Shown: positions 1 to 22,381, counted from the whole stretch's first letter. The stretch: 62,327 bases of DNA, filler included, from Vermamoeba vermiformis (GCA_045837725.1; 8 parts of 8 records of this genome joined end to end with filler, not necessarily neighbours in it), one strand, 5' to 3'. Notes: generated by a model from the letters alone, not told the origin. Numbers and translations: made by a program.

Positions 1-60
1 GTTAAATTAGATAAAATGAGATATCTCTCGTTTTATTGAAATTTGCTATGACAAATCGTC

Positions 61-1450
61 TTAGAAAAAACGTGATGAAGGACTATTGTATGGGCCATTG
101 TATGAGGGTGTTCCCGAGTAGTAGTTTGGTGGCACAACATAGTGAGGCTCTTGGCGCATCTGAGGTATTGGTGCTTGTACGACAACAACCTTTTCCTTCT
201 CTTTCGCGTCAGCTTTCACGTGCGACAATATGCGTTGCACAACTTCATCCAATGTCTTGATTGAACTATTGACTGCCTTTATCTCGTCAGACAAAGACTT
301 CAATCGTTCTTCGATGGCAGTATGCTTTGCGTTGGTTGTGTTGTTCAAGAGTACGAGCTGACGAGATGTTTTATCATGCTGTGAACTGATGGTTGCTGAT
401 AAAGCAGAGATATTCTGTCCAATGCTTGCAACATCAGCAAGCAATTCGGTGAGCTGTGGTGAGACCTGATTCGACAGATTGTTGTCTGATTTATGACGCT
501 TACGGGCGCGGTCATCTTCACTATCAGAGTCCTCGCGTGTACGAGATCGAGTGCTTTTTGATGGCAGTTCCGAGTCATCACTGGCTGGTCTTTGTTTCTT
601 TGGGCGTGCAGTAGTTCCGTTGTTGGTCACGTGCTCTCTCCACAATTGTTCAATGTGCATAGGCTCATCGTCGTTGTTTTTATACCCATTATTGGTTACT
701 GATCCTGGTTGAACCAAAGCAAAATGATCTTCACCATCACTGTTGATATGCAGGGCGATTAACGGTTTTGAGGTGGATTTTGCCTTTAAACATGCGGCAA
801 TTGTACACACACCGTATTTCTTTGCAAAGCAATCATCGCCCTTCTCGTGGAACGCCTCTTTGTAGATGAGAGCATCAAATTCAACGTATAAGCGACTCTT
901 GTACTTGATTTGCAGTCCTTGATCGTGGTCGTAAAATTTGTGATCGATGCCTTCATCAATGAGCTTCATGCCTTTGTCTATCCACAATTCTAAATTATGA
1001 TCAGCAATCAAGACAATTATGCTGTGTACAGTTGGTCACCTACGCAGAGTTCTTTCATCGGCTTCACGTTCAGTGGCTTGTGTAGCGTGTGTAGGTGTGG
1101 GCATGTCAAGTCCGTCATCTAGCAATTTATAAGAACAGCGTGGCATCGATAACACTCACCTTCAAAATCATTCACTGCTTCATAGATGTCACGCACAGCA
1201 CTAAAATTGATCTGCTTCATGTGCCCAGTAACGGTAAGCCCCGATGCAACGACAGAGAGCACACGACTATTGCAAGTAGTTAGATCATGTAAATTGATGC
1301 TGAGGGGCGTACCGATCATTATGGTTATGCCAGCTCCATTTCGAAAGACGTAGTATTGATCCCGTTTTGATTGCACCATTTGCAATCTTGTCATTCAGCG
1401 ACTCGTGCAAAATGCACGGTATCATCACATGCGCGTCAGATAATAACAAA
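61..1450 (-). CDS. Multi-exon hypothetical protein: RPA70N-like OB fold at the N-terminus, basic NLS-like region, coiled coil; start not resolved
   Basis: Spliced translation LLLSDAHVMIPCILHESLNDKIANGAIKTGSILRLSKW..DRRVLSVV resembles the RPA1 N-terminal OB fold. ORF 61-1011 has RPKKQR/RKRHK and a heptad stretch. Confidence 0.5.
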
Positions 1451-2148
1451 CTATGAATCATCAGTTAAAATAATAAATGAAAGCAGTAAACAAATGCAAA
1501 TTATCAAGTGTCGAAGTAGTGAAGTAATTTACGTAACGACCCGCCAATAACGGAGATTTAATTTTCATACGTTGCAATAAATTAATTACCAGTAATAATT
1601 ATTAAATATTATTTACAAGGTTGATTTATGAATGAGAACAATAGATATAATTATCTCGTAGTTAATTAATAATATTTACCAATAATGTTTGAGCTTCGAT
1701 CCGGGAGTGGATGGCGGGACAATATCTCGTACTTGCAATGTAATATTATCAATAGACTCCCCTTGATAAATTCGTATAAGAACAGGGTCCAGAGTGGCTG
1801 CCGACATGTGTGGTGTTCAATAACAAAAATAAAATAAACTAAAAACAGAGTTTCAGACCCTGAGAAAACCAACTCGAATTTTATCGTATTTACAATATAT
1901 AACATGATATAAGCACCACAATAGGCACTATATAGGGTCGCAGCTATCTCACTTTGAAGGTAATCAGTTTGGTTAATTTTTTTTTAAATCCAAGCGACCA
2001 GATGTGTTTGGCTATTTAATCGAGTGATTGTATTATGAATAATTACAATAGTAACAGTAATAATATGTGCAATAACACCCATCATTGTAGATAAATTGCT
2101 GAAGCCGTCACGTGCCGATAACGCAATAATTAATTTAATAATTGTCGA

Positions 2149-4486
2149 ATGGACTGGATCTGCGATTTTGACACAACAAAAGTCTTCAATAAGGGTATGG
2201 GCATTTATATCTATCTGCATTTCATTAATATATGTAGATGAAGATGAGACAACAAGCACGAGCGATGATCGGCGGTCGTGGATTTACGAGGTTGATAGCA
2301 ATAAAATTTTTGACGGTACGTATCGTTCTACAATTAGCTGCATTGCTTACACATAATAGATATTAATAGACGAGTATCCTCAATCTATGACCCCTCCCCA
2401 AAACGCACTTACAAATCCGAGACTCGAAAGTTGCGCGTCGCGTCACCATCACGAAAGCAGCTTAAGCTATGTAATTTCAATGAAAAGCTGTTGCAATACA
2501 AGTGCTGCAAACAACTGTGTATGAGGCAATTTAATGTCCAGAAGATTGAACGCTTACGACTGCCATACTCTGAGAAATCTGAGCGCGAAAGGTACGTACC
2601 TCATGTTTCTGCTAAATGCCTGACACGATGGCAGGTCAAGATGGCTACTTGATTCCCTTAATGCGATGAAAGTTGATCAAGGAAGTGACAAGCCTCCGAC
2701 GATTTGTTACAAGCTTGACGGTCTTGAAGTCTGTCAACGCGCTTTCATCAAACTGCTTGGAATCAGTACAAACAAGCTTGCACCTCTGCTACAACAAATC
2801 AAACAAGAGTCTAGTTGCTCTGTCATTCCACATGGTAATGCCCTCAGATTGTATTCATCAGCTCAATTACAGTCGGTGCAAAGTTTTGTGCTCAGCTTGA
2901 TGTCCATATTTTTCGATGAACAACCTGATAGTGATCAATGGCACTGCCCTATTGCGCTTAACAAAAAGCTTCTTTACGCTCAATATGCTTCAGAATTTGA
3001 GGAAACGCATCGCATAGCATCGCTGAGTACTTTCTATACGACAATTTCTCAGTACGCATGGATCAAATTCCCAAAGACTACGCGGTTGGGCAAATGTGAC
3101 GAATGTGTGGAGCTCAGAATGTAAGTTTCTTCCATACTCACAGTGAAGCTAATCTTGCGTAGGAAGTTGCAACAAGCTGCTGCAGTGTCCCAAACTCAAG
3201 TTACCAACGTTCAAAAGCAAGTGGCAAAGCACAACGCATTGCAAAAGTTAGAACGGCTGACATATTCTAACCGAAAGCTAATCGCTAGCTTTTTGATTTG
3301 GCAAATGATATGGGATGGCTATTCAGGGATTTTGATTCCGCACATTGCCTGGTCTCAGTTCCCAAAATCTTGGCTCCGTCTTGCACGTTTGCGATTGCAA
3401 ATATCCGGACTTATCAACCACAACACCAAGCGACGTACTCTGTTTGTCTCAATTGCACAACAGTATAGTCACGACAGCAATTACAGCATCAATCTACTAG
3501 CCATTCACATAGTTTCGCAAATCAGAGATGGTCAGGCTCTGCCACCAACAATGGTATTTCAAAGCGACAACTGCTGGCGAGAGAACAAAAATACCTACGT
3601 TTTTGGCTTTTTTGCGGTTTTGCTGCTCAAAAAGTTTACCAATACCATCTATTTCATTTGCCTTCCTCAAGGACACACTCATACAGACATTGACCAAGAG
3701 AACGTGCCAGTGGCTATTGGACTCAAGTCACATAATCTCCTTACGGGCGACGATGAAGATGTCAAAGAGTACATTAAGAGTTGCTACAATTCGCCGCCAG
3801 AAGTGCGATTGGTAAAAACTATCTATGATTATCGTGGCTGGCTTGCCCCATATCTACCAAAGCTCACTGGGCACACAAAGCCCCATGTTTTTCGATTCAC
3901 TGTCAATGCACAAGGAAGCGTTGTAATGCATTGGCGCAATTACACGGCAACAGATGAGGAGTGGAAAGGGGGTGCAGATGGTGACGATATTGTTATCCTT
4001 CACAATATTCCAGCGGACAAACCAATCAAGATTGAACCAAAGCCAATTGACGACAAAGTGATTGAAGCGACCAGAAAAACTTACGACAAACTATCTGAGG
4101 AACAGCAACAATACTTTGAAGAATTATTCAATGCCGATCAGCCTGCAGAAGACGACACAACTGCAATTGATCTACTAGATATTGAGTTTGACAGCCCAAC
4201 AACAAATTATGAATTGATGTTCTTGCCACCACAGCAGCGTCACCATGACCAGTCCACAACCTCAGTGAAAGTGGTGCACGAGGCAGTGCACCCTGATGTT
4301 GATGCTGTCATACCAGAGACTTATCCAGATGAAGATGAATTAGATGAAAATGACTATGATGCCCCAGTGTTGATACAGCCAGTGACAAGTACTGAGTGGA
4401 TTGCACGTGAATACCGAAATATAAACACAACTGACTATGGAAGAACAAAGCGAAACAAAAAACCAAACAAGCGATATGACGATTGA
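2149..4486 (+). CDS. DDE transposase-like protein (Sola-like / DUF7869-type), 4 introns
   Basis: Motifs KCCKQLC, VCQRAF..LLGIS, KCDEC, IWDG, FQSDNCWRENKN, LPQGHTHTDIDQ, KPHVFRF. Exons join in frame through GT-AG introns from ATG 2149 to TGA 4486. Confidence 0.8.
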
Positions 4487-4583
4487 AGTCAAACAAATAA
4501 AAAATGAGATACCTCTCAATTTATTTAATACAACTTTTTTGGTAATAATACACTCTTTGAACGTGTTGTTGACAATTAAGTAG

Positions 4584-6362
4584 GTGGACATGGACACTAT
4601 TAGCACTAGCAACCTAAATCGTCAATTCTTATTCTGCTTTGATGAGGACAAAGGAAAAGGGCTCAAAAAATACAAAGCCGAGGTAATTATTATTATCGTT
4701 TCTATTATATCCCTCTCTTTCATCATATTTATTATTCTTTTTGCCCAATTCGCCAAATTTCATGTGTCACAAAGTAAAATCGTGTTCACCGTTCACCGCG
4801 TTGATTTAGGTAGTCGCCGAACAAATACAGCAATTCGTTCCCAATATTGATATTCGTCCTATCACTCAAAAAGTGCAGTCCTTGCCGCTGTCAGGCTACG
4901 ATCAATTCACGTGCTTATTTGGCGCTCTCGATAACTCAGGTAATAGGATTAACAGAGCAGTATAGACGTTGAAAACACAGCTAATAACAAGGTCAACCAG
5001 ATGCTAGATATTACATCAATAAAATGAGCCAGTATTTCGGGATCCCGCTAATTGACGGAGGAACCGAAGGAAATATCGGACAAATCACTACTTATGCAAA
5101 GGTAGGCTGGTTTAGAGTATTTCGGTACCTAATCGATAAATAGGGCATCTCTTGTTACGCTTGTGATCCACATCCAGCACCAAAAAAGTTTCCCTATTGT
5201 ACAATCCGAGATAATCCATCAACCATTCAGCATTGCGTCATTTGGGCGAAATTCACTTTTAAGTACGTACAATCTCCCTAATTTTGGCGTTATTGCTGAT
5301 GGATTTTAGTTTAATTTGGAATGAAGAGCTGATCTCAGAAGTTAATTTGACCGAAGCCGACAAACAAGACATTGACTTGAAAAAACTGTCCATGAAGGAC
5401 ACTTTCAGCAAGGTATTTACTCGGTTTAAAAGATTTGGTTTAATATTGACTTGCAGCTGTTCGGCGAACATCTCAGACTGGACAATTACAACCTACAAGG
5501 AGGAGTGGCCATCGATCAATATAGTGCTGGCAGTCTCGAACACAACATATCTGTATTTGCTAGAACGTAAGTGCACTGAGCCACGTGACTCCCTCTGACG
5601 CCATCGCAGATTTGAACAGTTAAATGACAGAGCTCAACACGGCGTCATTCTGTTCGACAAAGATGATCTTGATATGGTTGCATTCACCGCCGCATTGACC
5701 AATATTAGAGCGCATTGTTTTGGTATTCCAATGACCACCATCTTTGAGGTAAAAAGTAAGCCACAGTAACGCATGTCGCAATCTTGGCGGACGCAACAAT
5801 GATAATTGCTTTTGCAGAAATTGCAGGCAACATCATTCCTGCGGGAGCCACGGCCAATTCTACGATTGCAGGACTGATGACATTGCAGTTCATCCGACTG
5901 CTCACTGGTCAAACAATGAACAAGTAAGTACCGTATGTATCGTACTGATCGTTAATACTCACGCCATAGTATAAACAATCAGATTAAACTTGATCGAAGT
6001 ACCGAGCGAAGAGATGAAGATGATTCTCAAGACTGAGTTACCGCGCAAAACTTGTGATGTGTGTGGTGTCAATGTAGTGCGCATCGGAGTTGATGAGCAA
6101 ACGACCACCGTAGCCCAGTTTGTACAACTAGTGCGAGAAACGCGACAAATTGAGCCTTTAATCATGCTACCGTAAGCTTGTATTTGAAGTAGAAGGCAAT
6201 TAGTGACGTTCTTTTAGGGATGCATCGGTTTTGGACCCTTCAGCGACAGATTTGCTGTTCAGTCGCGTCAATTGGAACACGATCATGGACGTGGATGATC
6301 TCGACGCAGATTCATCGTCTGCCGTGCCTTTATTCAAAATCATTCTTTCCAAGATACATTAA
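4584..6362 (+). CDS. UBA2: SUMO-activating enzyme E1 catalytic subunit, UBA2/SAE2-like; 5' part with GxGxxG not found
   Basis: VDMDTISTSNLNRQFLF, ALDN.DAR, IDGGTEG, Zn pair CYAC, catalytic FPYCTIRDNP..HCVIWAK, FDKDD, IAGNIIPA.ATANSTIAG and second Zn pair CDVC. Many short introns; TAA at 6360-6362. Confidence 0.88.
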
Positions 6363-6476
6363 TCAATTCAACAATGAAGTAATAAACTCTCGGCAAGCTC
6401 TTCTGTCTTCTGGCGTCAAATATCGAACGTTGGATTGCACCACTAAGAGCTATTAGAATGACAAGTGTTGATAGAA

Positions 6477-7906
6477 TTACTTACCGTTTTTAATGAGTGC
6501 CAAGGTGGTACTACTGCTCGGTACTATCGTTCTTCCGCCTGTCAGGTCGAGATCGAAAACGATATTATCGGCTACTTGTGAATCCGAGTCTGAATACACA
6601 TCTGACTGCGCCGAGTGCAAAGAAGACTCTGAATCAGACTCTGAATCCGAGAAGGAATCAGATAGGATAATCATGTCAGTAGCTCGTTGTTGAACTTGGA
6701 CCGTTGGCTGGGTTGCCTCTGGACTGCGATTGGTATTATTTACGTTGGTTGCACGGATTGAGCTGTTCGCGATATTCATAGTATTGACATTGTTCATGTT
6801 GTTAGCGTTCGAGTTGTTTGATTGATGCCCGTTGAAGGCATTGACCTGCTTATTAAGATTGATTGCTGGGTTGACAACGTTAGAATTGTTTAGGTTCGCG
6901 TTGTCAGCACTGGTTAAGCTGTTCCTATTGTTCGTATTATTTGTGTTAGGTATCGCTGAATTGCCAATGTTTGAATTGTTTGGGTTCACGGTGACGTTAT
7001 TGTTGTTCATTTTTTTACTCCCGCAGGACCCATCTTTTTCACCCCTGGGCTCTTTGGAGGCACTTTTGCAGGGTTTGGATGGACAATGGGATCTAAAGAA
7101 TTTCGTCGGACATTATTCTTGGCTAGACTCGGACTGGCTGGGTGAATCAAATTATTATTCGGCGCGTTGACCGGGCTGGCACTGCGGGTAACTTGTACGG
7201 GTTGATTGTCTTTGTTTGGAGACCGCTTTAGAACAGAGCGGAAATCAGTCTGGCTAGGACTCGTAGCCGCGCGGTGCATCGGTGGACTGGAGGTTTTCTT
7301 CAATCCACCTGACACCGATGTCAACATTTGCTGATTTAATTGAACAGAGGATCTCAGCCCCCCAATTCTGGGAACGGTAATCACATGCTCGTCGTCGAGA
7401 CCCACTGCCTTCCACTTGCCGTTGGCAGGATTGAATTCGATATTTTCAATGTCATCGATTCGAGGGTTTGTGCATAAGGTGTCCAAAATTCTTTTGAGAG
7501 TTGCATCGCGCACCAAATTATCCTGCGCTCTTATTAAAAAACTTTGCTAAGCGTAGATGACCAATAGTACGTACATGATCCAATTCTTTATTGCAGTTTG
7601 GAATTGGACACACGGACAGATCCACAATTGACTTGAACATGGCTATTGACTACGTAGAGATGGTTAATAATTGTGAATAAATGGATCCAAGCTCCGAAAG
7701 AATTGATCGGATGCCGAAAGAAATTCACTTTTCACTCACTTCTCTGTCAAAGCATTGGATATGCTCGCATAGGTGGCCTTTAACGGGATCTTGCAGTCTG
7801 TCCTTGCTTAAAGGGCAGTAGATCGAAATTAACTCTACATTTCGTTAACGTAATGCTCTTTACATTGCTGCTTATGGACGATCATACCTGTTATCTCAAT
7901 ATTCAT
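6477..7906 (-). CDS. SP-RING (MIZ zinc finger) SUMO E3 ligase, PIAS/Siz-like, with Asn-rich and Ser/acidic tail; 3' end uncertain
   Basis: Spliced MNIEITELISIYCPLSKDRLQDPVKGHLCEHIQCFDRE..VCPIPNCNKRI..LVRDATLKRIL..IEFNPANGKW matches the SP-RING consensus. The tail ORF 6477-7010 is in a different frame. Confidence 0.8.
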
Positions 7907-8056
7907 TTCCGTTACTAGTAAGAGTAGTGTTTGTGGTAACTTGACAGATAATTGAATTAATTTCACAACCTGAAATGACTTCGGAGCGCGGAAGTTCAAG
8001 TTTGTGATTGAAAAAGCGAATTGTTCTATTCTTTCGTGTTAATAAGATTGAATTTA

Positions 8057-9289
8057 TTAATCGGATCGGTACGTTGATAAGATTTGAGAGATGTGTTTAC
8101 GGTAACTGGTAATATCGGCTTGCGTAAAATCAAACGGAGAATTAGAAAGAATGCATTCCAGATATTTCAATAAGAACACTCCGCAATCGTAGCCATTCAT
8201 TTGCTTCGGTGTTGACATGGCGCAGATACTCCATCGAGTCTGGGCTGAGACGCCTAATTCTTTAGTGAAGCATTTTTGAATTTTCTGAAACGGAAACGGT
8301 TAATATTCCCACAAGTCAGTGGAATGATCATTTGGATCTTACTTTTGCCTCTTTTTGAGCGTTAGCGCTCATCGAATCATAGATCTGAATTTGGAACGAA
8401 GCGAGATCTACGACAGCCAACTTCCAGTGTATATTGGACACATTGATAGGTATTATTAAATATTGCGCATGCAGGTAATCTTTCTGAATACAACGATGAG
8501 TGCTGTGGTGCTGCGAGAAGCAGGTCAATTACCTCAGAGAGCCACTCTTTGACGAATTTGTAGCCTTTGTCCGCCAATCCGGTGTAGAAAAACGTCTGAA
8601 AGAAGTAATATGTGTTCGGATTTCCTCCGTTGTGCAGGAATTCGCGCTTCAAATACTCTGAGTACGCGTTGACAATTGAATCGTTGAGAAAGACGCCCTC
8701 CTCAAGTCTCTGCAAGTCAGTCTTGCGCACAGGCACGCCGCCAATGATATTGACGTACAAACTCGGCGCTGACACCGCGGTCGTGCTCACTTGTGTCAAG
8801 TCCAAGTCATAGACAATCGAGTCGTCGAGAGGTTGATCCTCGCTGACCTCGAGTGGCGTGTCTTGGACCGCTTGATTATTCTGATGGATTGGCGCATGTC
8901 TCTTGTTTTCATGCAGAGAAGCAGTTGAAGCAATAACTCTCGCATTCTGGTCCTTCAGCGTGTTTGGCCACGAAGATCCATTGTACGACTGTTGTTGTCG
9001 CTGAGATACCGCTCTTGCGTTGTAATTAAGATCATTTCCTGAATATGACGGTATTAAAGGTCGTTCTACCGATTCTCGTGCCGAATAGTCATATTTAGCG
9101 AGTGGTTTCTTAATCTCGGCGACTGCACCAATTAAAATTAATTAAAAATCAGAAATTCAACATCAAATTTAGGAGAAATGGAAAAAATAATACCTTCGTT
9201 ATCTGCTCCGGTGTCGCACAACGAAAGCTGAGCAGTTGCAGGAAGTTATTACTAGTAACAGACGACTGACTACGTACCCAGCAGCCCAT
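8057..9289 (-). CDS. ULP1: Ulp1/SENP-family (peptidase C48) SUMO protease
   Basis: DLQRLEEGVFLNDSIVNAY, FFQTFFY, IIPINVSNIHWKLAVVD (His), YDSM (Asp), PKQMNGYDCGVFLLKY (Gln/Cys), PFDFTQADI..YR. Exons join in frame. Confidence 0.92.
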
Positions 9290-9418
9290 TTTAGAATAGT
9301 TTCGTTAATATAACAAAGGTTGAGCTGCGCGATGACTCTTGCAGTAACAAAAGAAGAATTGAAATAAATACGAAAATTGAAATTTTATTGAGAATCACAA
9401 CGGCGGAGATTCCTAATT

Positions 9419-10113
9419 TTACAAGAGTGGGTATTGAGCCTTTTGTTTCGTAATGCGTGCGTTGTATTCTGTAATATTACTGAAGCAAAGATCAGATCCA
9501 AACTATCGTGTCAAGTGTCAAAACTTACTTGGTGTAGAGTTCTAACGCGTCTCTATTGGCAGGAGAATAGGGATTTGGATTTTCAAGCAAATCTTGCATT
9601 GCAAGAAGGATCTAAAGGTTCGGTTAGGAGTAAAAAGAATAAAGAGAATGACACTTGCCTGAGAGATACCGACTCCCACGTGCCAATCGTCATTAAATAA
9701 GCTCAAACACACTCTACCTGAGCTAAATACATTCATGTGAAAGAATCCAGGCTTGAAATAAACGACAGGAGCTACGGCAGGATGATTACTACCGAATTGG
9801 ATCGTAAATGTGTATGTTGCTCCTTCCCATGGTGTCTGCGATCAAAAAGTTTTAGCGAAGTATCGTATATATACAAGGGCTATAATTTCTAATTACGTTT
9901 TCAGGGCCGGGAACGCCTGCTTCCCAATGCAACCAATTTTCCTTGCCTCCTTCTTTAATTGGACGTGCGAAGAAGTTGCCAGGTCGATCCTTTGAACGAT
10001 TGTGAGTAATATGATTCGGCGTCTCAGAGTACTGCACCTACCCGAATGCCTCGTCGTTCAAAATTTCTGAAATCTGCCATAAGGCTGCGCACCGAAGGAG
10101 AGAGCTCGGTCAT
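9419..10113 (-). CDS. UBC9: SUMO-conjugating enzyme E2, Ubc9-like, 4 introns (one GC-AG)
   Basis: Spliced: DRPGNFFARPIKEGGKENWLHWEAGVPGPENTPWEGATY..FFHMNVFSSGRVCLSLFNDDW..ISQILLAMQDLLENPNPYSPAN..EYNARI. Aligns by eye along Ubc9, with the catalytic Cys in VCLS. Confidence 0.9.
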
Positions 10114-10259
10114 CTATTCGTTTGTGTCTAATACCTGGTAGTATGTCTAATAAAGTGAAATAATAACTCAATTCGCCAAATTGAAATTTATTTAGTTGGG
10201 GACACGAGATTTTTTGTGACATAACAAAATGAAGAATTGAACTGTTCACAATCGTGAAT

Positions 10260-10611
10260 TCAAAACCCTCCTTCTGTTTCGGCCATTACATGTAACTTTG
10301 CACCATTCGTCATTTGTAACTGAATAAATGGATTAGTTTGATCGAATACGTGAAGAATTGCTTACTTTCTCAGGCGTTTCTGTCATCGCGACTTCTTTTT
10401 TATTGAACACCCACTTAATAGTGCTCGTGTCTTTGCCGAACTTAGCGCAATAAGCTGCTTGAACATCCGTTAAAGGATTTTTACTATTTACTACAACATT
10501 CAAACCATTGCCCATCTGTTCGTCGCGTATTTAGTAATGTCGCTATCAACAGACTTAAGAACGTACCCAATCACGGACGGATATTTTAATATTCTCTCCT
10601 CCTTGTGCCAT
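10260..10611 (-). CDS. Divergent SUMO-like modifier, 84 aa, ending GG-F
   Basis: Exons 10611-10567, 10515-10366 and 10319-10260 give MAQGGENIKISVRDWMGNGLNVVVNSKNPLTDVQAAYCAKFGKDTSTIKWVFNKKEVAMTETPEKLQMTNGAKLHVMAETEGGF. It has the SUMO-type PL..V..AYC and TP..L.M..G patterns and a di-Gly. Confidence 0.85.
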
Positions 10612-10717
10612 TCTTTATCGCAACTTTTGCTTTTGATGTTCCGGTCAAAAATTCGGTTTTTGTGCTTGTGAAATTTGGGCTGGCGAATTCCCTTTCTTTT
10701 AATTTTAATCTTCACTG
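10612..10717. promoter_or_regulatory. Probable bidirectional promoter between the SUMO-like gene and the SP-RING/RING gene
   Basis: 106 bp between two head-to-head ATGs (10611 minus, 10718 plus). Confidence 0.55.
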
Positions 10718-11453
10718 ATGGAGCATCAACCAGTCATAATTTCGTTATTGCATCCAGGCACAAATAAGCGCATTAAAAAAGCGGTCATTGGATGTAATTG
10801 CAGTCACAACTCCGCTTTTGATCTGGAGGTAAATTCGAATTCTTTACTGTAAAAGAATAGATTAACTTTTAATTAATTAGGAGTTTAAACGAAGCAATGA
10901 AATTACATGTCCCTTGTGCAGAAAAAGCTTGAAAAATGCGCAGGTTAGTTTCCCAAAGTGACGCAGGTTAGTTTTGACTGTTTTGACAGGGCATCACGGA
11001 ATTGAAGCGCGCTCGATTAATTTCAACCATTTTAAAAGCCGTGAAACACCAACCAAAGGTTGTTGCCGTCAAATTGTGGCCTAATGAGGACTGGGCACCC
11101 TTATCAGCGGGTAAGATTAAACAAAGAAAGTTTTACTAGCTAATAATTCACTTGTAGATATGAAGCCAGTTGTAATCGAGTTAAATCTGACAAAATCTTC
11201 GGCGCCGATCGTGTACGATTTGGATCTGACGCAACCAAAGCCTCAGCAAGCACCGAGTCAACCCGCAGCACAGCAACCAACACCACAAGAAGCAGAGTGT
11301 GCTGTTTGCTATAGTGCACCACCTAGTCACGCATTCGTGCCTTGCGGTCACTTTGTGTGTTGTGCTGAATGCGCAGATCAAACCTTTCAAACTCGCAAAA
11401 AATGCATAATTTGTAACGAGCCGATTAGCCAAATATTAAAACTGTTCCACTAG
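10718..11453 (+). CDS. SP-RING-like + SIM-like motifs + C-terminal C3HC4 RING protein
   Basis: Exons 10718-10828, 10881-10943, 10990-11110 and 11158-11453 join in frame: ISLLHPGTNKRIKKAVIGCNCSHNSAFDLE..ITCPLCRK, then VVIELNLT and IVYDLDLT, then CAVC..FVPCGHFVCCAECA..KCIICNEPI. Confidence 0.82.
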
Positions 11454-11506
11454 CCAACCTAATTACAATCTACGACCTAATCTACAATCTACGTAAATTC
11501 GTTATG

Positions 11507-14500
11507 TCACTTCATTTGTTTCAATCGTCCAAGGACCTCGCTCATGTCAGGTCTGTGTGCTGGGTTCTGTTTGCAGCAGTGAATGACGAGCTGTTTCAGA
11601 TCGAAGTGATCTTCGTTGCGAATAGCTTCGTTGATACGTTTCTCTCGTGACGTCTCGTCAATTACTGGAGGTAGGCCTGCATTACTGAGCATGTGAAACA
11701 ACACCACCCCAAAGCTACAACCGCAGAGGTTAGTCACCGAACGAACGCCAGAGTAATGACATACGAATAGACATCAACTTTGTACGAATAAATTGGCTCC
11801 CAAGCCAGCACCTCAGGCGCCATAAAACCTAATGTGCCGGTCTCGCCTGTAAATATTGTGTCCTGGCTAAACCATTTGGCAGTACCAAAGTCTGTCAACT
11901 TGGCTCGCTTGCTCTTTTGATACAACTGTCGATGGTCAGTGCGCGTCTAGCACGTGTCTTGATCCTTACCAATATGTTGGCACTCTTGAGATCGCGGTGG
12001 ATAATCTGCGGAGTGAGGCTGTGCAAGTGATCGAGTCCCTTTGCAACATCCAATGCAATTTGTACGATTTCCGACCGCGATAATTTCACTTTGCGCTTGG
12101 CCAGCAAGTCGTGCAGTGATCCGTGCTTCATATACTCGAGCACCAGTGCAGGTTGATTGTTCTCAGGATTTGTTGACGTGCCCATCAATAGAACGATGTG
12201 TTTGTGACGCACTTGCCTAAGAATGTTGTCAGGTACAAGCACGAATAACGCTTTATCGCGAGTATTACGAAAGGATTTTTGCTTCGGCAAGCACTGTCAC
12301 GGGCGAGTTTAGAGCAGTCCGTTTGAGTTCTTTGATCGCAAACTTTTGGTTGTACCACGTTGCTTTGCGAACACTGCCAAATGATCCTTCGCCAAGTGTC
12401 TCTTCGAACATCAGCTCCTCATAAGGAAAGTCTGCAATGTTGTTAATATAGGTAGACGCACTAATTTAATGGTCGTACTGGAAATGTTTCGTTTGATGAG
12501 TCGCAGCGCTGCTTCGTGCTCTACTTTCAACTCCTCAAGGCGTCTCAATTTGTCGCGCAGAATGTTATTATCTGTTTCGAGAAAGTCGCTCGCATGCTCG
12601 TGTACCTATTCGTGCTTTCGGTTAGATGTTCGAGATATGCTACTAGACTTACGGTCGAGTGAGCTGAGGGGAGATCGATCCGAATTGGGGGACCAAGTCG
12701 CCAAGTCAAATCGTCGTTCACTCGCAGGTAGTAGCACCACACTTGACCAACAGCCACTTCGATTGATAAGAGGTGCTCTACAACCTCCCACTGCACTTCA
12801 TTTAGTCTGCCGAGATTTATAGACGCAGAGCTCGACCATTGGTTCAGCCATATGACACGAATTCTCTTTCGGCGTAGAAAGAAATTGAAGCGCAATGTCA
12901 TCTCTTGACAGTCTTGAGGCGAAATAATCTTGGCCTCCATGGCTTTGGCATGGCCTTCGTAAAAAGACTGTCTAGAGCTATCGAGAACACGTTCAATGTC
13001 CTCCAATGTCACTTCGCTCCCAGTTTTGCAAAGTGCCGATTCAATGAGCAGTGAGTCCACATCGGACGGCGACAAGTTGGTATATTCCGTGTAGCTGTGC
13101 CAAAAGCGCGACACAAAGTTTGCCCCATAGTATCTCTTGCAACCTGACACGCATCAGCCGGATTCGTTAGGTATTGCAATCATGTTTGGACTAACCAGCA
13201 AGCTTCTCTGCAATTTTAGGCAACTCTTCTTTGGCTAGCTTAATGGTTTTGGAATTTCGTGTGGTGGCCAGGAGGTATTCGTGAATAGAACAGGTGTCGC
13301 CCAGTCTGACTGGAAGGCTTTTATCGACCGAAAATTCGTGCGCGTGATCACTTGTCGTCGTAGCTACGTAGTGTTAGAGGCACATCGGAGTGTGGACCTA
13401 GCTTACCGAGGATTGTTAGAGATTTTGTGTCGATATTTGCTTGCTTGCAGTGTTCGAAGAATTCTTTGACTTGCTTCTGATTCTCGTGTACATCCTGCAC
13501 GACAATGATCACGCCGTCCCCATGGTTACGCTGAATCAGGGAGAGAAGGGACTCGAAGCCAAATAACTGCCAACATCATCAGTACTTTGATTGTTGGTAC
13601 GGAGTGCTAGGACTTACACTCGTCATCACAACAAATGGTCGGCCAAGGTCGGACACTAATTGTGTCAGTTAATTACAGCTTTAATAGTACCTAGTACTTA
13701 CAAAGGGCATTGACTACCAGTGAGCTCTTTGTGGCAATTAAATAAGTAATGGCTGAGTAATCAGTAGCAAATAACTTACCGCACCATCGAGCAATATCGT
13801 CACGGGAGAATTCAATTTCGACAAACATTGGAGCTCTGTGATCGAATCAATCTCTTGTTTTAGCTTCGCACGAAGTGTGGGCAGGCTACAGACATCCTCG
13901 ATAAAGTCGGTAGATTTAATTCGACGGAACCAGATCCGCTGGATATCCGACGTAATTAGGGACTCAATCTTCCGCAATTGTTTGTCTTGACTCGTCAGCG
14001 ATGAAATTACAGAGCCAATCTCCGCGTTTATATGCGGCAGATCATCGTCCAGCCAACATTTGTGACAAATTCTATTGCGCTCCATCGCATTTTTAATTGC
14101 AGTCACTCCGTCGTCATTCAATTTGTTGTCTGCAAGGGTTAGATCGATGGCAGATGGTGCATTTAATTACCTTTTAAGTTTAGCTCGGTGATGCTTTGAT
14201 TGGTTTCAATCATCGAAGCCAGTCCCAGCGCTCCGTCTGAACCAATGTTGTTATCTGCACTTCTAAGTGAGCACCGAGATATGCCTTCGTAAATATATTA
14301 TACATACCAGAGATGTCTAAATGCGTGAGAGAGGTGTTCTGTGCGAGAGCCTTTGCTAGATAGTTAGCCCCTTCGTCCTCAATTCCGTTGGCTTCAGATC
14401 TGTTAGTGGGCGACGATTCGTTGTCCATTTCATACCCTTAATTCCGAGCCTCCTCAGTGAGTGATTGTGCGAGATACTTTCTGCAATTAGCTTCGCTCCT

Positions 14501-15117
14501 TCTGGTCCAATGTCGCCGTCTGGCTCCGAGATCATTAATTTTGTTGCCTTCGAAGGAAGGTGATCTTACTCCATATTGTTAGAGCAGTCAATGAGTTGGT
14601 GTTACTGATCATCAAGGCGATATGCAAGGCTCCTTCTGGTCCAAGTGAATGGACAGCTGCCAAAAATAAATGAAAATTAATATTTAATAAATTAATTAAA
14701 AGTGAGTTTAATACGAAATATATCTAGGATGTTAATCGAAGAGCTTTGTGCAAGGGCCTCGCAAATCAATTGAAACGAATCGTCTCTGCCAAAATAAAAA
14801 GAATTAACATAAAAAAATAAGATTTACATTTTACTCACTGCGCATCACTAATGTATACTGGTGCTTTGTTCGAGCACGGTGGCGAGTATAATTCCCTCTT
14901 CATTGCTGATCACGCACCAACTTATCTCTATAGTAGTAACGCTTTGCGAAAAGTCTACGAGTTGCCTGAAACATTCTCTTGTTGTAATGCTGATAGTGGT
15001 TGACTACATATTGTAGATTAATGAATTGTCTGTCGTGTTTTTTCATTTTTTTATTTAATGAAATTGACTAATCGTGATTTCGAAAGTATTCGTAATTAGT
15101 ATCAGTACCTTCTCCAT
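11507..15117 (-). CDS. RNI-type LRR + unknown middle region + TKL-family protein kinase, multi-exon
   Basis: LRR GIEDEGANYLAKALAQNTSLTHLDIS. Kinase motifs LGEGSFGSV, HRDLKSANIL, DFG, GTLGFMAPE, RPDM. Possible frameshift near 14850. Confidence 0.8.
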
Positions 15118-15257
15118 GATCAATTGTGTGCTTGGGTGGAGGAAATACAAGCGTTTTCAGGGTCAAAAAAAGTTTGATCGGAATCTCGCTTAGAATGACA
15201 GGTATCACAACAATTTATTTATTCAAACCCCAAAATAGCTCCAAAAGATTACCCTGT

Positions 15258-16517
15258 TCACTTTGCTTGTCGCTGATGTTTCAGCTCGGCCATGAAGTGC
15301 GTTACTGCTAGCCTAATCTCTTCATCGAAAAATGCATTGCGATTCGAAAATATAATTCTCGTCAGCACAACCGATATGAACACGAACAATATCTTGGCTA
15401 GTGTCGTCGAGAAGCCACCAATGTCCTTGAGCGAGCGATAGATGAAGTACCAGCCATTTTCTTCTTTTGTCGTCGGAATTTTAGTCGTGGCTAATCGGAG
15501 TTGCAATTCTAACACGCTGAAGGGCAGAGGAATAGCCATTACGGATATGTTGTTCGTCGTGACTGCTGGATAACACATGCGATTCAGTCGCAGCAAAGTC
15601 GTGTTTGGCGCGCATTGGAGATGATTGTCCATGATGTTTAGGGTCGTAGTGCTCGTCGGATAAGACACTTTGGTCAAGTACGCGAATGGGCTGGAGCTGT
15701 CGGGGTCGGGGAATTTGTGCTCTTCGCGGTGAAATTCAAGGATTGCTTGTGTGATGCCGCCGAGCAGGACTTGCGTGTGGTACGTGCTCGGATTGTTGAA
15801 AAATGCCTCGGAGCTTTCGTACCAACCCCCGGGAGTGGTGGCAGGGAATTGGTTGATGCGGCTCCAGAAACCGAGCAGCTGGATCTCGACAATCTCGAGT
15901 CTTCTGAGAGCTTGCCAGATCGGACATTGCTCATCGCCAAACGAGACGCACTGCAAGTCACGATTGAAGGTCACGACAGATTTGCACCTCGCAGTCATGT
16001 CATCCGTGTCGCACGAGTAGCTCTCAACGGGAGTTTGGAGCTGGGTCGAATTGCGGAGTAAATTTCTCTGACCGGTAGGACTCCAATGAACGCACGAGGC
16101 AGTGACTTCGGCGTGAAAGTTCTCTCGCTGTGACATGCGCCACACTACTGGATGCCAGCCTCGAAAGCCGCTGCGTGAGAAACAGAGTCCAAACACGGGC
16201 AGCGGAAATAATTTGCTCTCCTCGCCCTTCTGCTGGTAATAGTCAGAGTTGATGCTGCTGCTGATCTCGGGAAATGATTGGTAGTTGAGGTAGAACACGG
16301 ATGTAATGATTGCAACTGCGGCACAAATCAAAAGCAGTTTGTGGATCTTTTCGATAAATTCTTTTTTGCGACCAATAGCGTCGGATGCTTCCGGCAGCGT
16401 GAATCTGGCGATGATTCGCTTCATTGGATTGTTGTAGTGCGCTTTACCATCGGGATCTGGTCCAACGAACTCGTTTCGATCTTCTTTTGAGAGGAGCTGA
16501 TATGAGAAGTCAGCCAT
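15258..16517 (-). CDS. Two-TM protein with a large Cys-rich loop, ENaC/DEG/PAC-like topology
   Basis: Intronless 419 aa ORF. TM1 (LLLICAAVAIITSVFYL) is followed by PLPVFGLC; Cys-rich loop; KDIGG precedes TM2. Confidence 0.6.
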   Translation of the reverse strand: MADFSYQLLSKEDRNEFVGPDPDGKAHYNNPMKRIIARFTLPEASDAIGRKKEFIEKIHKLLLICAAVAIITSVFYLNYQSFPEISSSINSDYYQQKGEESKLFPLPVFGLCFSRSGFRGWHPVVWRMSQRENFHAEVTASCVHWSPTGQRNLLRNSTQLQTPVESYSCDTDDMTARCKSVVTFNRDLQCVSFGDEQCPIWQALRRLEIVEIQLLGFWSRINQFPATTPGGWYESSEAFFNNPSTYHTQVLLGGITQAILEFHREEHKFPDPDSSSPFAYLTKVSYPTSTTTLNIMDNHLQCAPNTTLLRLNRMCYPAVTTNNISVMAIPLPFSVLELQLRLATTKIPTTKEENGWYFIYRSLKDIGGFSTTLAKILFVFISVVLTRIIFSNRNAFFDEEIRLAVTHFMAELKHQRQAK

Positions 16518-16789
16518 TGTGGTGTAATGTAATAATTAGGAATAATGATTGTCCGTTTGGTTTACTTTCATAGTTTGACCAATCAGAGGACGAGAATTGA
16601 GCGGCGGAATTACTTCTGATTTGTGTAAATGTTTAAAACCGCGTTAATTTTACCTGTCGGCCACTTAGCGCTCGAGCGCAACGTGTTGCGGTTTTTATTT
16701 GTGGACCACTTTAATGAATGGTCGGCTTTTCATTATCTGAAAACCCGTCATTAATTAATTAATTTCCGATTGTTATTATATATACTACT

Positions 16790-18639
16790 TCCTCTTTGTA
16801 CTTGGATTACTGGACCTGGGCCTCAGACCGTACTATTCAACTTAGTTGTTTGTCCGTCGGTCGCCATTTCATTGCCTTGTTGAATGGTCAATCAAACGCT
16901 TTCAAGCAATTCGGAGGTTCTTTTGAGAATAGTAAGTGACAAGCCTAACGAGTATGTTAACTAATCTGACGTACCAGGACTTCGTTCCTGCCCTCTTCCA
17001 ATTACATCTGGTTTTTCCGAAATCTATGATCACTATGTTATAGATGTCGCTGATAATAATTTCTTGAACATCAACGTCAAGGAAATAACTGCGGATTATG
17101 TCGAGATCTTTGTGCAGAAAGATCGCCTCCCTACAACATCTGATAATCTCGATCGATACACAGGCGACACGAACAACAAGTTCCTCAGCTTGGATCCTTG
17201 CACAGTCTCTGCTGGTAAATATTACATCTCTATTTGGGGAGGTTCGGGTGGTCAAATGCAGCTTACCGTAAACACTGTGCCCCACAAGTGCGTCACTCCG
17301 ATTACTTCTGCATTCTCCGAAACGCTCGTAATCCACTCTGGTCACTGGCTGTACTACACATATGGTAATTGCCTAATGTCTGTGACATACGCTGACCGAT
17401 TGCTAAAACAGATGTCAGCGCCAATCAAAATCAATACGTCGTGTTTTTAGCTCAGCCAATTACAGGCACCACATCTACTTACATGCAATATGACGCACAG
17501 CCTACATCGAGTTATTATGCGTTGTATAACAGCAACAGCGGTACCAAATCGTTGCCAGCATCTCCGTGTGACATTCAAGCGGTGAACACAGTGTATTTTG
17601 CCGTTCGTTCCTTCGCTGACCAATCATCTGTCGCACTCTCGCTCCTGACCAGTATGTGGATAGCCTATTCAGAAAATGTTATCTAACTATGTCGCAGGCA
17701 ATGTCACATGCCCGATTGAGTTACGTAGCCACGTACATTATCTTTCTGGTCTGGTGACAACTATTGGACAACAACAACTCGATTTTCATTCGAGGTTACT
17801 GCAAATATGACCCGTAAGTAAGATTACTAAACTTAAAAGCAATACTTACGAAGCATAGCCATGGCTATTCGCTTGTCCGTGTCGAGTCAGGTGTCGCAGG
17901 CGGTGTATCTCGCATTCAATCGAGAGCCCACGACCTCCGCTTATGACTACTACAGCTACTCTACAATGTAAGTACTGTGTTAAGAATCCTGGCCAGAAGT
18001 ACTTACGAACTGTTTTAGAAATGTTCCGCTTACATCATTCGCAGTCGGCAAGTGGCACGTGATGGTCAAAGGCAACGCCAAGCCTTTCACTCTTACAGCT
18101 AGCTTTGGTACGTAGAATTCACTGAGATATCTTTTGCTAACGTGGTACAGACTCGTCTGCATCGGCTGCTGTCCCCAGCTCAAATCCTTCTTCTAGCCCC
18201 GTTGCCAATAATGACATCTGCAGCTCGTTTGACTCGTGCTCATCGTGCACTCCCGTTGGAGGCTGTGGCTGGTGCTCGTACAGCAGTACTTGTCAAAAAG
18301 GTACGTAAATGCTGTCTTCCACTCAGCTCTAATGTTACATCAGGTGACTTCTATGGCTCTGACAGTTATTGTCCAACGGCCTATTGGAACTACGCCTCGT
18401 GCCCTGTTGAGCCTGTAACGTGCTCAGCTTCTTCGTGCAGCGATTGCTTCGGACAAACTGGTTGCGTCTGGTGTGCCACTGCGACAAGCTGTATTCCGCG
18501 GTTGAGTGCTAACTCAACGTGTCTGAATTACACTGAAGCCGCTCAGTGCACAGCTCCTGGCAAGGTTAGCAACGCATTGCAGATTAATGCTGTCGATGTG
18601 TTATTATCCGCTTTATCAGCTCTTGTCATGTACTTGTAG
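16790..18639 (+). CDS. Cell-surface protein with PSI-like Cys repeats and a GPI-type hydrophobic C-terminus; 5' end unresolved
   Basis: CSASSCSDCFGQTGCVWCATATSC and a second similar repeat, repeated beta-rich extracellular modules, hydrophobic tail; many introns. Confidence 0.6.
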
Positions 18640-19686
18640 AGCTTTCTTTTATTGTTAGCAGAATAAATTTATTACACTTACCTCAAACACTGTCACTCGT
18701 TCACAGTAATAATTTAGAAAATATTTTACGGCACGTTGATGAAAATATCTGTAAAATTTTCCACCCATAAATACAACACAAATTGTTATTTTAATTAATT
18801 TAATTATTTACCGCTTTTTAGAAGCAAAACAGGATCGGTTGTGCAAAATCTCCTACATACTCATAAATTGGCGACAGCCTACAATATGTTCTGTGTCCGT
18901 CAATTCCATCGAGGTACCAACAACAATTTGACGTACGTGTTCGCTCGACAGGATCAAAAAGGAAAACAAACGCGGTAATTTTTTTATTACCCACGCCAAG
19001 CCCTACCAACACCAACAACAAGGAAGCCGCGAAAACCATACATTAAAATCGTAAATTACGAACCAATGGAGCCTTACAACTCACAGGCGCTATAAGATCT
19101 TAAGATCACTGAGAGAAAAGTGTATTTTACGAGTAGTTGTAAGTATTTTTGACATTTTATGGCAGGTTATGTGCCCTGGGCGTTTTACCGAAGTGTTCAT
19201 AAAGTTATATATCTGAGCGGTTTAAATAATTATTTCTGCCCGTAAATTACTAATTATTTTGAAATTACTTTTACTGCTTTATTATTCATAGTAATATGCC
19301 GTAATTGATTTATACGGATTGTCTTATCCTTATTTTCGAACCTGGTAATATAAGATCTCGTTTCTTCTCTTACTGGAGCGAAGTCATCGGCAGATTGGGC
19401 TCGGTGGTTAATATTAATTTTGACAGGGATGCTGGTGGTGAAATGAAAGTTTAGGCACGATAATATCAGCAGTTGGAGACATGTAGACGTTACAACAACG
19501 CATGTCTAAAATAATGCGTTACAATTTCTTTCGCACGGAACGAATTCAAAGCAAACCAACTGCCAATTCAATCTCAAAGTCGGTGATTGCCCGCTCCAAC
19601 CTCCAATTCTTTTTTTTGTGATTTGCGCACGTGTGGCTCAACCTCTTATTGTGTTGTTCTTTTAATTCGCTTTATTCAACAACACA

Positions 19687-21849
19687 ATGAATCGCGCACC
19701 ACGACTACCATCACTCTATTTTGTCTGCTTGTTAGCTCTTGCTTCAATCGCGCTGGTAGAAACTGCCAGGTAAATTTACATTGCCTAATTAAGCACGGTA
19801 ATTCCTGATACTAATTGTTTATATTACAGTTGGGTTACGTCTCCAGAGCCCGCGGGTTATACAGGAGACGACGGCACTGCTTCGCTTATTGCTCCGTGCG
19901 GCAACGATGCTGCTGGCTATCCTTCTACAGCGCTAATACGTTTCGGGTAGGTAATCGCATTGTGGAGACAATTTGGCTAATACGAGGTATTATAGACTCT
20001 TGCAACTAGAATTAGTGAAGAACGCAACGGTAACGGGCTACAGCTTGTCCATCGCGGCCAACCAAACGGATTTCGCAACTACAAGTCCGTTTTTCACTTG
20101 CGGGCAAAGTAAGCGCACTCTTTTTATGTCAATAGTGACGCAAGTTGTAATGCATCCTTAGGCACTGATTGCTCGCTATCCTCCTCCCGAAATGACAGAT
20201 CGGTAGTTATTCCGTGGTCTGGTCCCGGAATAATCCAATATCAAGCGACGTCCGAGGGACAAACTTGGTAAATTGGAATTTATTGCTCAGAACATTAATC
20301 ATTAATCCCTTCTAATAGGTTCAACTGTTTTGCTGCAGATGTCGAATCTGGCCCAATCAATTCGTCAACGATTATTGGCTTAACAAACACCTCTGTTAGC
20401 TTCGTTCTTGCCGTACAACCGAAGAATTTTGTTCTAATTCAGAGTAACTTTCTCTATAGTATTGAAACTACAAGGTATGCGCTGACTATCCAGATCGCGG
20501 ATCTGATCGAGTTCAGAATTAACGTTTTGTCAGCGATAACTCCAACCTCGAAGTGAATTACGCCAATTCAGATCGTAGATATTTCGAGACTCTGCTCAGT
20601 AACGTAGGTACCTCTACCGAGTCCACCGCTGTCGCTACGATTGAGGCGCTGAATGTTACTGCAGACCCCAAGGTCAACATTACTTATCTTAGTAAGTGAA
20701 GCTATCCAATTGCAGAGTTAATGGCATTGCTAACCGAACAACGTCAGATCCCGTTGTCGTCAATCCTTCCAACCCTAGCGCAGCGCTAGCAGCTGACTTC
20801 AGCATTCTTCTGATTCAACGCAACGACGGTGGCTTGGTAGGCTTGCAATCAGTCACTATTGCCGGCACTTACACCTACAACGCTCTGTACGAGTCACCCG
20901 ATTCAGTAGCACTCAAATCCGATTCTGTTTATACTCCAACGACGGTAAGTAGCTTGTTGGGCATTTAAAGACAGCTGCTAACGTCATTTTGTACGCCAGA
21001 CTCAGTGCTTCAACGTTGAAGGATACGATCAGTATTTCCTCATTCGCGGTGGCGGTGACGTTCAAGTGACATTGGACACGACTCGTCCTTGCGCCGATTC
21101 GTTCTTCCCTTACTTTCCCACTCAAACGCACTTCGTAATCTACATTATTTTGCTGGCAATTGGAATTTTTTTCTCGCTCGTCTTTTTCAACCCTTGTTTT
21201 CAAGATTTGATGAGAAAAGGCCAAGTGTATGACGGTAAGCACCGTTGGTGTTTAAGACTTCTTAGTTTAACCAATGCTTTACCTAGGCGACGTCACACAA
21301 TGGGAGATGGAAGTGCATTACACTAAAACAACGACGAAAACAATCGACGTGGCCACAGGGCGAACAATTGACAAGAAAACTTCAACAAGTATTACGTCGT
21401 GTGATTGTACCGTCGAAGTAAGTTGTTCTTGCATCGAGTGACGGCGATTATTAACTCAGATTGTAGGTTGAGTATGGTGGAGTCAAGGACACATTTAACG
21501 GCTGCTGCTTGTGCTGCTTCTCGAAGCTTCGAGTGTTGGCATATCCTGATCGACTTACGTGCTGTCCAATGTTGTATTACAAGGGCTGGATGGGCTACAT
21601 CTTCTCATGTATCTTCGGAGTAGGTCCGATATTCGCCTCGGGAGTCATTGCTTTCATCAACATGGGCATACGTAAGTAGTACTAAGTAGTGCGTGCTTGT
21701 GCTGTGCCTTGCTAACACTTGTGCTCGCAGTTGGAGAGCTCGAGGAACACGGCGGTGCAGCACTCCAATTTTTCCTTGGCTTGATTTCGTTCGGTCTAGC
21801 TGGCGTGTTTGTAATTCCTTGGTGGAAGATCCCTCGCTGCAGGAAATGA
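19687..21849 (+). CDS. Signal-peptide protein with an extracellular domain and a multi-pass C-terminus
   Basis: MNRAPRLPSLYFVCLLALASIALVETA signal peptide, Ser/Thr-rich exons, TM FVIYIILLAIGIFFSLVFF and further hydrophobic exons; TGA at 21847-21849. Confidence 0.6.
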
Positions 21850-22381
21850 GCAGCTCGTTGTCGTAACTAGTAAATTAGTATTTTATTTGTTTACATGTGA
21901 AACCACAAACGATTCAATCCACCAAAATTATCGTAGCAACTCTGAACAGTCGCGATCAACCATGAGCTATTATTTAAAATAACAGAAGCAAGATCAAGCT
22001 GCTCGGATCGGCATCTTTCGTTTAATTGAGAAAAAATCATATTTAAATATTTACAAGCATGGACATGCAGAAATTAATTATCGAGCTAGAAAAAAGGTAA
22101 TTTTGGTTCATCTGACTTCGTATCTGCAGATTTGTGCTGCTTAACGCATATATCTTGCCGTTAGATTTAAAAACCACAAGGTTTACAAAATGTAAAATTT
22201 TTTAAAGCTGCATTTACACTTATTTTATGTTGTGTCACGACGGACTAATTTACTGCGCGGTGCAATGCAAAATAAGTTGACACACCGCTGACAAGATTAT
22301 TTTAAAATTGGAACTCCAACGTAAAAGCACTTATACCGCATTTTCCCAACAGAATCAACACAACAGCAACAAGTCCCTGTT

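Follow-up and report, generated by a model that had tools for sequence, protein, structure and literature searches.

Six adjoining intron-rich genes of Vermamoeba vermiformis that probably form a SUMO-type modification module

Here we describe a cluster of six adjoining spliced genes at positions 4584-11453 of a window of Vermamoeba vermiformis DNA, the window being the whole stretch of 62 kb that was analysed. The predicted products are a UBA2/SAE2-type subunit of an activating enzyme (E1), an SP-RING ligase (E3), a protease of the Ulp1/SENP type, a Ubc9-type conjugating enzyme (E2), a SUMO-like modifier (referred to below as the tag) and a protein that joins an SP-RING-like part to a RING (gene 6). 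These calls were made from profile (Pfam) scores read against curated cut-offs, PDB sequence matches, a splice search and spliced models, and for five of the six genes either the family score lies above the curated cut-off or the best match is clearly to SUMO-specific enzymes. The genes and their exons are as follows.

4584-6362, plus strand: UBA2/SAE2-type E1 subunit (splice search, model, SAE2 match); ten exons in the window, 4584-4682, 4810-4939, 5001-5101, 5144-5262, 5310-5412, 5457-5566, 5610-5755, 5818-5923, 5983-6171 and 6218-6362
6477-7906, minus strand: minimal SP-RING E3 (zf-MIZ, model); exons 7888-7906, 7740-7834, 7575-7649 and 7010-7522, with the stop at 7007-7009 as the window reads
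8057-9289, minus strand: Ulp1/SENP-type C48 protease of 334 aa (Peptidase_C48, SENP1 match, joints, model); exons 9278-9289, 9194-9227, 8533-9122, 8343-8483 and 8057-8284
9419-10113, minus strand: Ubc9-type E2 of 161 aa (UQ_con, PDB matches, joints, model); exons 10042-10113, 9897-9989, 9659-9835, 9529-9611 and 9419-9479
10260-10611, minus strand: SUMO-like modifier of 84 aa (model, both introns seen as joints); exons 10567-10611, 10366-10515 and 10260-10319
10718-11453, plus strand: gene 6, SP-RING-like part plus C3HC4 RING, 196 aa (zf-C3HC4_3, model, three joints); exons 10718-10828, 10881-10943, 10990-11110 and 11158-11453

In cluster order the spacers between the genes measure 115-117, 150, 129, 146 and 106 bp. 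An initial annotation of this DNA had proposed six consecutive genes, about 100-150 bp apart and with no unrelated gene between them, and both the order and the spacing are borne out by the models and the joints. We judge six pathway genes in a row to lie far beyond chance. All six genes contain introns, 25 across the cluster, of 42-127 nt and with GT-AG or GC-AG ends. A splice search that held the known peptide segments in frame returned one GT-AG intron per junction, of 42-62 nt plus one of 127 nt; short introns of this kind, one at each junction, mark the window as part of the compact nuclear genome of a eukaryote. With the bacterial code the region yields short open reading frames (ORFs) alone. 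The ciliate and Mycoplasma codes (6 and 4) were also tried and rejected; they opened no long frames, the short ORFs being exons.

Four sequencing runs were compared with positions 1-12600; X3 and X4 designate contig sets of two other studies that we judged to be RNA-like. Over 4584-12600, 32 X3 contigs and 19 X4 contigs match the window at 95-99% identity or higher and skip the predicted introns. Fifteen splice joints were listed and 17 further ones found, whose ends read CT..AC in genes on the minus strand and GT..AG in gene 6; the GC-AG intron of the E2 gene (9612-9658, CT..GC on the plus strand) is removed in both X3 and X4. Since the introns are missing from these contigs, related strains transcribe and splice the cluster genes. 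RNA support had been named in the initial annotation as a check on its gene models, and the spliced contigs confirm many of the junctions. One DNA sample, possibly the source, contained 0.98 of the sampled words of the DNA, against about a quarter for runs labelled with other organisms; the small word shares seen elsewhere, including in water and aquifer metagenomes, have no bearing on habitat or distribution.

The E1 frame runs through 415 codons in the window with no internal stop. In a PDB search with the exon carrying the predicted catalytic Cys (FPYCTIR) the six best rows were SAE2 (E 1.1e-9 to 1.5e-8, the best being human), ahead of UBA1 with a best E of 2.9e-6. Two E1 exons match the Pfam family ThiF, at profile positions 50-69 and 123-154 and both under the cut-off, and another exon gave no PDB match. 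The C-terminal stretch is acidic and Ser-rich, and recalls the C-terminal SUMO-interaction motif (SIM) of SAE2 described in the review PMC12687455.

The E2 scores 53.8 bits with UQ_con, with its putative active-site Cys within VCLS. The best 20 PDB rows are all Ubc9 or SCE1, and the first other E2 comes at rank 21 with 43.4 versus 50.1 bits. When the core exon was compared with 1.84 billion representative sequences, 863 were found at E <= 1e-3, 8 at <= 1e-10 and none at <= 1e-30, the identities to the best 150 being mostly 40-56%; the spliced protein reached at most 46% identity to any of these 150. In a quick tree built from 73 of 150 representatives (140-240 aa) it was placed among the Ubc9-like rows on a branch of 0.84, compared with a median of 0.39, and with no supported sister. 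In place of the HPN motif the E2 has HMN, in which the His and the Asn are kept; among the 130 matched representatives (of 150), 117 carry HPN, 13 carry H-[VLIC]-N and none carries HMN. Word-index protein searches with an E1 exon (among longer proteins) and an E2 piece (among proteins of near length) scored nothing, and metagenome contigs held no relative that could be found through the Ulp1 exon or a pattern for the loose end of the E1 gene.

The last exon of the protease matches Peptidase_C48 with 40 bits (cut-off 20.7), and its best solved relatives are SENP1 (E 3.2e-9), SENP5, SENP2 and yeast Ulp1. The His, Asp, Gln and Cys expected of such an enzyme can be read in the model as NIHW, YDSM and QMNGYDCG, and four of its joints were observed in contigs. 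X3 also contains two alternative joints, 9037>9193, which skips 155 nt, and 9122>9194, which skips 71 nt. This suggests that alternative splicing of the protease transcript drops part of the N-terminal region.

A 39-residue exon piece of the SP-RING gene scores 43.6 bits with zf-MIZ (cut-off 33.5). Just past the protease stop, at 8039-8041, the frame closes, and the sole in-frame Met precedes the finger exon by seven residues. With so late a start the SP-RING protein has neither a SAP nor a PINIT domain ahead of its finger. Its tail (6477-7009), which is Asn-rich and then Ser/Asp-rich with a SIM-like motif, lies in a different frame in the window; the junction is a T-run at 7010-7016, and X3 has one more T behind position 7009 that puts the tail in frame. 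The C-terminal RING of gene 6 scores 51.4 bits with zf-C3HC4_3, and its exon 1 gives a weak zf-MIZ match under the cut-off (17.6 bits, E 0.0034), which fits a degenerate SP-RING-like N-terminus. A SUMO-targeted ubiquitin ligase of the RNF4 or Slx5-Slx8 type is recognized by SIMs together with a C-terminal RING. The RING is present in gene 6 along with a single SIM-like motif, and known ligases of this type usually carry several SIMs.

The tag is the most divergent part of the cluster, far beyond the enzymes. It ends in ETEGG followed by F and the stop codon, in other words in Gly-Gly with a one-residue extension. Exon 2, which encodes 50 of the 84 residues, aligns without gaps to SUMO2/3, with about a quarter of the residues identical to SUMO2 as counted on the alignment. 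In the PDB search with this exon 31 of 34 weak rows were SUMO, the single SUMO2/3 chains having E values of 0.075-0.17; the score of the tag against SUMO2/3 is 16 bits, and against the Pfam family Rad60-SLD 12.7 bits (E 0.11, cut-off 23.8). As a look at the beta-grasp fold expected of SUMO, exon 2 alone was modelled with AlphaFold2 (AF2); the model has a predicted local distance difference test (pLDDT) value of 76 and contains one helix and two strands. A Glu four residues ahead of the last Gly places a non-basic residue at the position that governs E1 specificity, which is Glu93 in SUMO1 and Arg72 in ubiquitin according to PMC12687455.

A further trait common to three of the proteins is an octapeptide of the form IV[YF]DLDLT. 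A regex search of the 62-kb window, translated in all six frames, returned exactly three copies, each inside a cluster gene; for DLDLT the expectation is 0.065 occurrences and the maximum in 200 shuffles was one. The three copies are located as follows.

6540-6563, minus strand: IVFDLDLT, in the tail frame of the SP-RING gene, close to the C-terminal end of the protein and beside a Ser/Asp run
8794-8817, minus strand: IVYDLDLT, in the protease, within the N-terminal part that precedes the catalytic domain
11208-11231, plus strand: IVYDLDLT, in gene 6, between the two zinc-finger parts

The pattern is that of a hydrophobic core with alternating Asp and Leu, a Thr, and adjoining acidic or Ser runs. 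SIMs of the PIAS type consist of a hydrophobic core, D-L-T and an acidic or Ser run, as in the form VIDLT; the cluster peptide resembles them in its hydrophobic-acidic pattern and differs in its exact sequence. We therefore read IV[YF]DLDLT as a candidate SIM that would dock the three proteins on the tag. A complex prediction for tag exon 2 with the piece of the protease bearing the motif gave a score of 0.01, which weighs neither for nor against binding.

The comparison with X3 also gave an indication of selection. Of the 93 differences, 40 were classed, one of them non-coding. The E1 gene has 9 synonymous and 3 non-synonymous changes, the upstream frame of the SP-RING gene 11 and 4, the frame of the SP-RING tail 5 and 6, and the protease none and 1. 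Taken together, the E1 gene and the upstream SP-RING frame show 20 synonymous to 7 non-synonymous changes, and this excess of silent changes points to purifying selection.

From these data the cluster is probably native to the chromosome, its six transcribed, intron-rich genes making up a SUMO-type module able to write, erase and read the modification. That it is a working SUMO-type module appears likely. The gene identities, catalytic motifs, splicing, transcription and shared motif are observed, and each biochemical step set out below is inferred. The catalytic residues that the initial annotation had reported as kept, FPYCTIR of the E1, VCLS of the E2, the His, Asp and Cys of the Ulp-type protease and the di-Gly of the tag, are all readable in the models. 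In the reaction sequence that we envisage, the protease would clip the single residue after the Gly-Gly of the tag. The UBA2-type subunit, with a partner encoded elsewhere or in the unseen 5′ part of the gene, would then adenylate the tag and load it onto the Cys of FPYCTIR, and from there the tag would move to the Cys of the Ubc9-type E2 in VCLS. Attachment to lysines would be assisted by the minimal SP-RING protein and removal would be carried out by the same Ulp1-type protease, while gene 6, with its SIM and C-terminal RING, could act like a SUMO-targeted ubiquitin ligase.

We regard the cluster as a case of conventional SUMO biochemistry whose gene arrangement and sequences are unusual. 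It shares with the canonical SUMO pathway the enzyme families, the closest solved relatives being SAE2, Ubc9/SCE1, SENP1/5/2 and SUMO2/3, as well as a tag with a Gly-Gly tail and a short extension that can be clipped, and SIM-type peptides in its ligase, protease and RING protein. It differs in that the genes are all adjacent with spacers of 106-150 bp and no SAE1/AOS1 is seen in the window, that the E2 carries HMN and stays at or below 46% identity to its 150 best representatives, that the tag has 84 residues and no N-terminal tail, and that one motif is common to three of the proteins; unlike canonical PIAS/Siz proteins, the SP-RING protein has neither SAP nor PINIT. SUMO pathway genes are textbook examples of dispersed and strongly conserved housekeeping genes. 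The initial annotation knew of no clustered whole pathway, and our searches of full-text literature, supplements being outside their scope, likewise found no description of a SUMO pathway whose genes are physically clustered. A tag, E1, E2 and protease encoded side by side are also a feature of the bacterial ubiquitin-like operons (Bil, and CBASS with Cap2/Cap3), whereas the Vermamoeba cluster is of eukaryotic type, with spliceosomal introns, genes on both strands and no match of its pieces in PADLOC (0/10). Transposons that carry Ulp1 offer a third comparison, in that a C48 gene lies near a transposon-like gene, here one encoding a DUF7869 protein; however, the cluster protease is a separate spliced gene within a set of six, unfused and 3.6 kb from DUF7869.

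Several observations weigh against a complete and functional module. The membership of the tag in the SUMO family is a weak assignment made from low sequence scores, and a Foldseek search of the exon 2 model against the PDB gave nothing at E <= 0.001, with SUMO and ubiquitin among the weak rows. The first E1 exon in the window begins at position 50 of 238 of the ThiF profile, so that about 49 first positions, and with them the nucleotide-binding start of the enzyme, fall outside the window, and in the assembly this exon at 4584 is separated from the upstream exon by at least 4.58 kb. No AOS1/SAE1, the heterodimer partner of UBA2/SAE2, was seen among the 25 families shown of 37 found with 95 ORFs of at least 85 aa from 11.4-62.3 kb, which included no ThiF or other ubiquitin-system family. 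Nor did it appear with 150 of the 180 ORFs of 40-84 aa in the set from 11,454-27,000, these 150 covering 11.45-23.6 kb with kinase and PSI as the sole families and small exons elsewhere being unscreened. Relative to the X3 strain the SP-RING gene is one base short, which breaks its frame, and two RNA runs labelled with the organism of the window have 0 reads on 1-12600 and provide no test of transcription in this strain. The E1 split could be either real damage or an assembly error, and the same two options, a true frameshift or an assembly error in a homopolymer, apply equally to the SP-RING gene. The initial description of the system as self-contained accordingly stands in part: the genes are linked, transcribed and divergent with intact catalytic motifs, but no AOS1 was found in the window and the 5′ exon or exons of the E1 gene lie outside it.

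If the module works, we lean slightly to a second, private system that exists beside a canonical one, as opposed to the sole SUMO machinery of the organism. The lean comes from the extreme divergence seen in the tag, the changed E2 motif, the pared-down E3, the motif private to the cluster, the two possible lesions and the linkage itself. In its full form this reading, which we advance tentatively, describes an orthogonal system with its own tag, E1, E2, ligase, protease and reader and with recognition through IV[YF]DLDLT, the genes being kept linked as co-adapted and dispensable parts, for which linkage would be expected. Two observations count against a second system. The median identity of the E2 to 12 full-length Ubc9-like representatives is 39.7%, compared with 42.5-57% for these representatives themselves; this is only slightly below the Ubc9-like medians, and the E2 alone is no proof of a paralogue. 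The other is the contig word depth of the tag, E2 and protease genes, some 20-40 times that of the adjacent kinase, although this is a poor measure.

The same two observations would sit well with the view that the cluster is the only SUMO machinery of a divergent lineage that keeps its housekeeping SUMO genes adjacent, a possibility that we take seriously while holding it to be somewhat doubtful. All catalytic motifs are kept, the Cys exon of the E1 is well conserved relative to human SAE2, and the divergence of the E2 lies near or within the outer range of the Ubc9-like representatives. It is harder to reconcile with a sole machinery that the tag reaches only 16 bits against SUMO2/3, that the E2 lacks the Pro of HPN and that SAP and PINIT are missing from the SP-RING protein. 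If they are real, the split E1 gene and the frameshift in the SP-RING gene are lesions that an essential pathway could hardly bear, and we know of no selective force that would bring essential, dispersed genes together.

The DNA upstream of the E1 gene contains the following gene outside the pathway.

2624-4486, plus strand: DUF7869 gene, context only (profile match E 1.8e-47)

It consists of one frame interrupted by a single TAA at 3122-3124. A tail of about 42 nt past its stop (4489-4532) is repeated at window positions 1-42, which gives the impression that a further copy ends at that point. Over 1-4583 the X3 and X4 contigs have zero depth. They do extend before 4584, by at least 255 nt (X3) and at least 104 nt (X4), with the reading frame continued; these upstream letters are not on 1-12600, and the last 30 of them are unmatched in the entire window with up to three mismatches. 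In one X3 contig (2098 nt, in which 5983-6171 corresponds to record positions 1861-2049) about 946 nt precede 4584. This is far longer than the missing start of ThiF needs, and could represent an untranslated region, a merged neighbour gene or an N-terminal extension; conceivably it even codes for an AOS1-like half fused to the enzyme, in which case the SUMO-type E1 would be a single chain.

A strain-specific decay, in which an insertion has cut the E1 gene from its promoter and first exon or exons and a frameshift has removed the SP-RING tail, would account for the absence of the upstream E1 exon of the X3 and X4 contigs from the entire window, for the DUF7869 sequence with its in-frame stop in 1-4583, and for the one T fewer than X3 at 7010-7016 that ends the frame at 7007-7009. 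We nevertheless consider decay unlikely. The 415 E1 codons in the window are free of stops and synonymous changes predominate, assemblies commonly err by one base in a homopolymer, and the long intron may still be spliced. The intervening stretch of at least 4.58 kb compares with introns of typically about 50 nt in this genome. The RNA runs of the strain itself provide no test here.

The DUF7869 gene is also the starting point for the idea that the cluster arrived as one block, either as the cargo of a mobile element or giant virus or as what is left of one after domestication. The initial annotation spoke of a transposase beside the cassette and of possible mobile-element cargo. The adjoining gene is real, and its product is plausibly a transposase. 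The DUF7869 protein has three relatives with 57-65% identity, and an AF2 model from a four-row alignment (pLDDT 42) was too poor for a structure search; a full-text literature search found no mention of DUF7869. An Atlas search returned generic C48 and DUF7869 clusters alone, those with DUF7869 being eukaryotic and mainly from arthropods and oomycetes. Beside this gene, minus-strand ORFs of 324 and 91 aa at 61-1394 have no Pfam family, sub-threshold matches and a coiled-coil-like C-terminus; they may be a second gene of a DUF7869 element. As for cargo, the gene lies directly upstream of the cluster with a second copy of its 3′ tail at 1-42, Ulp1 domains are known as transposon passengers, and acquisition as a block would account for the linkage. 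Against this, a repeat search of 1-20000 found no inverted or direct repeats bracketing 4584-11453, only short matches of 18-30 nt; the base composition is that of the flanks (GC 0.417 in the cluster versus 0.412 in the remainder of the window), and the 25 introns are of host type. Instead of flanking a complete unit, the DUF7869 stretch divides the first in-window E1 exon from the upstream exon. A scan of IMG/VR found no relative for either the E2 exon or the DUF7869 protein, and 0 of 10 pieces matched PADLOC. We thus regard arrival as cargo as very improbable. The suggestion of a defence or anti-silencing function found no evidence, 0 of 10 pieces having matched PADLOC.

Our preferred reading of a native SUMO-type module has implications that depend in part on what else the genome encodes. 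A contiguous, transcribed and divergent set of genes with its own docking peptide would be a eukaryotic example, found in nature, of linkage at the level of a pathway. Should a canonical set also exist, the cluster would be a natural orthogonal tagging system that bears on how ubiquitin-like systems are duplicated and insulated, and it might supply compact parts for orthogonal tagging. As the sole SUMO machinery it would still be unusual for the clustering of an essential modification pathway.

Some features of the non-coding DNA in the cluster deserve mention. The sequence AATTCGCCA occurs three times in the window, always in non-coding parts of the cluster: at 4747-4755 on the plus strand within the 127-nt E1 intron, at 10170-10178 on the plus strand between the E2 and tag genes, and at 10681-10689 on the minus strand between the tag gene and gene 6. 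By chance 0.81 copies would be expected, and three were reached in 4 of 100 shuffles, a generous statistic given that the motif was chosen post hoc; it may be a shared promoter element. An X3 contig running from the E2 gene into the tag gene leaves out the 55 nt of 10141-10195, which include AATTCGCCAAATT and have GT..AG ends on the plus strand though both genes are on the minus strand. The skip could reflect an antisense transcript, a leader transcript of gene 6 or a deletion in the strain. Rfam gave no match in the window at gathering scores, and none in 4400-11600 at E <= 0.1.

Downstream of the cluster the neighbours are ordinary (kinase, kelch, ankyrin and COQ9). Two ORFs 10 kb apart, 24044-24703 (minus strand) and 34558-35160 (plus strand), share 42% identity over about 220 residues (E 5e-44); the first of them has no Pfam match, and the pair forms a local inverted duplication of an orphan family. 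Finally, positions 43935-44945 (plus strand) hold an ORF of 336 aa with repeated SLKKSEA...EVASLK units, a coiled-coil-like repeat protein.

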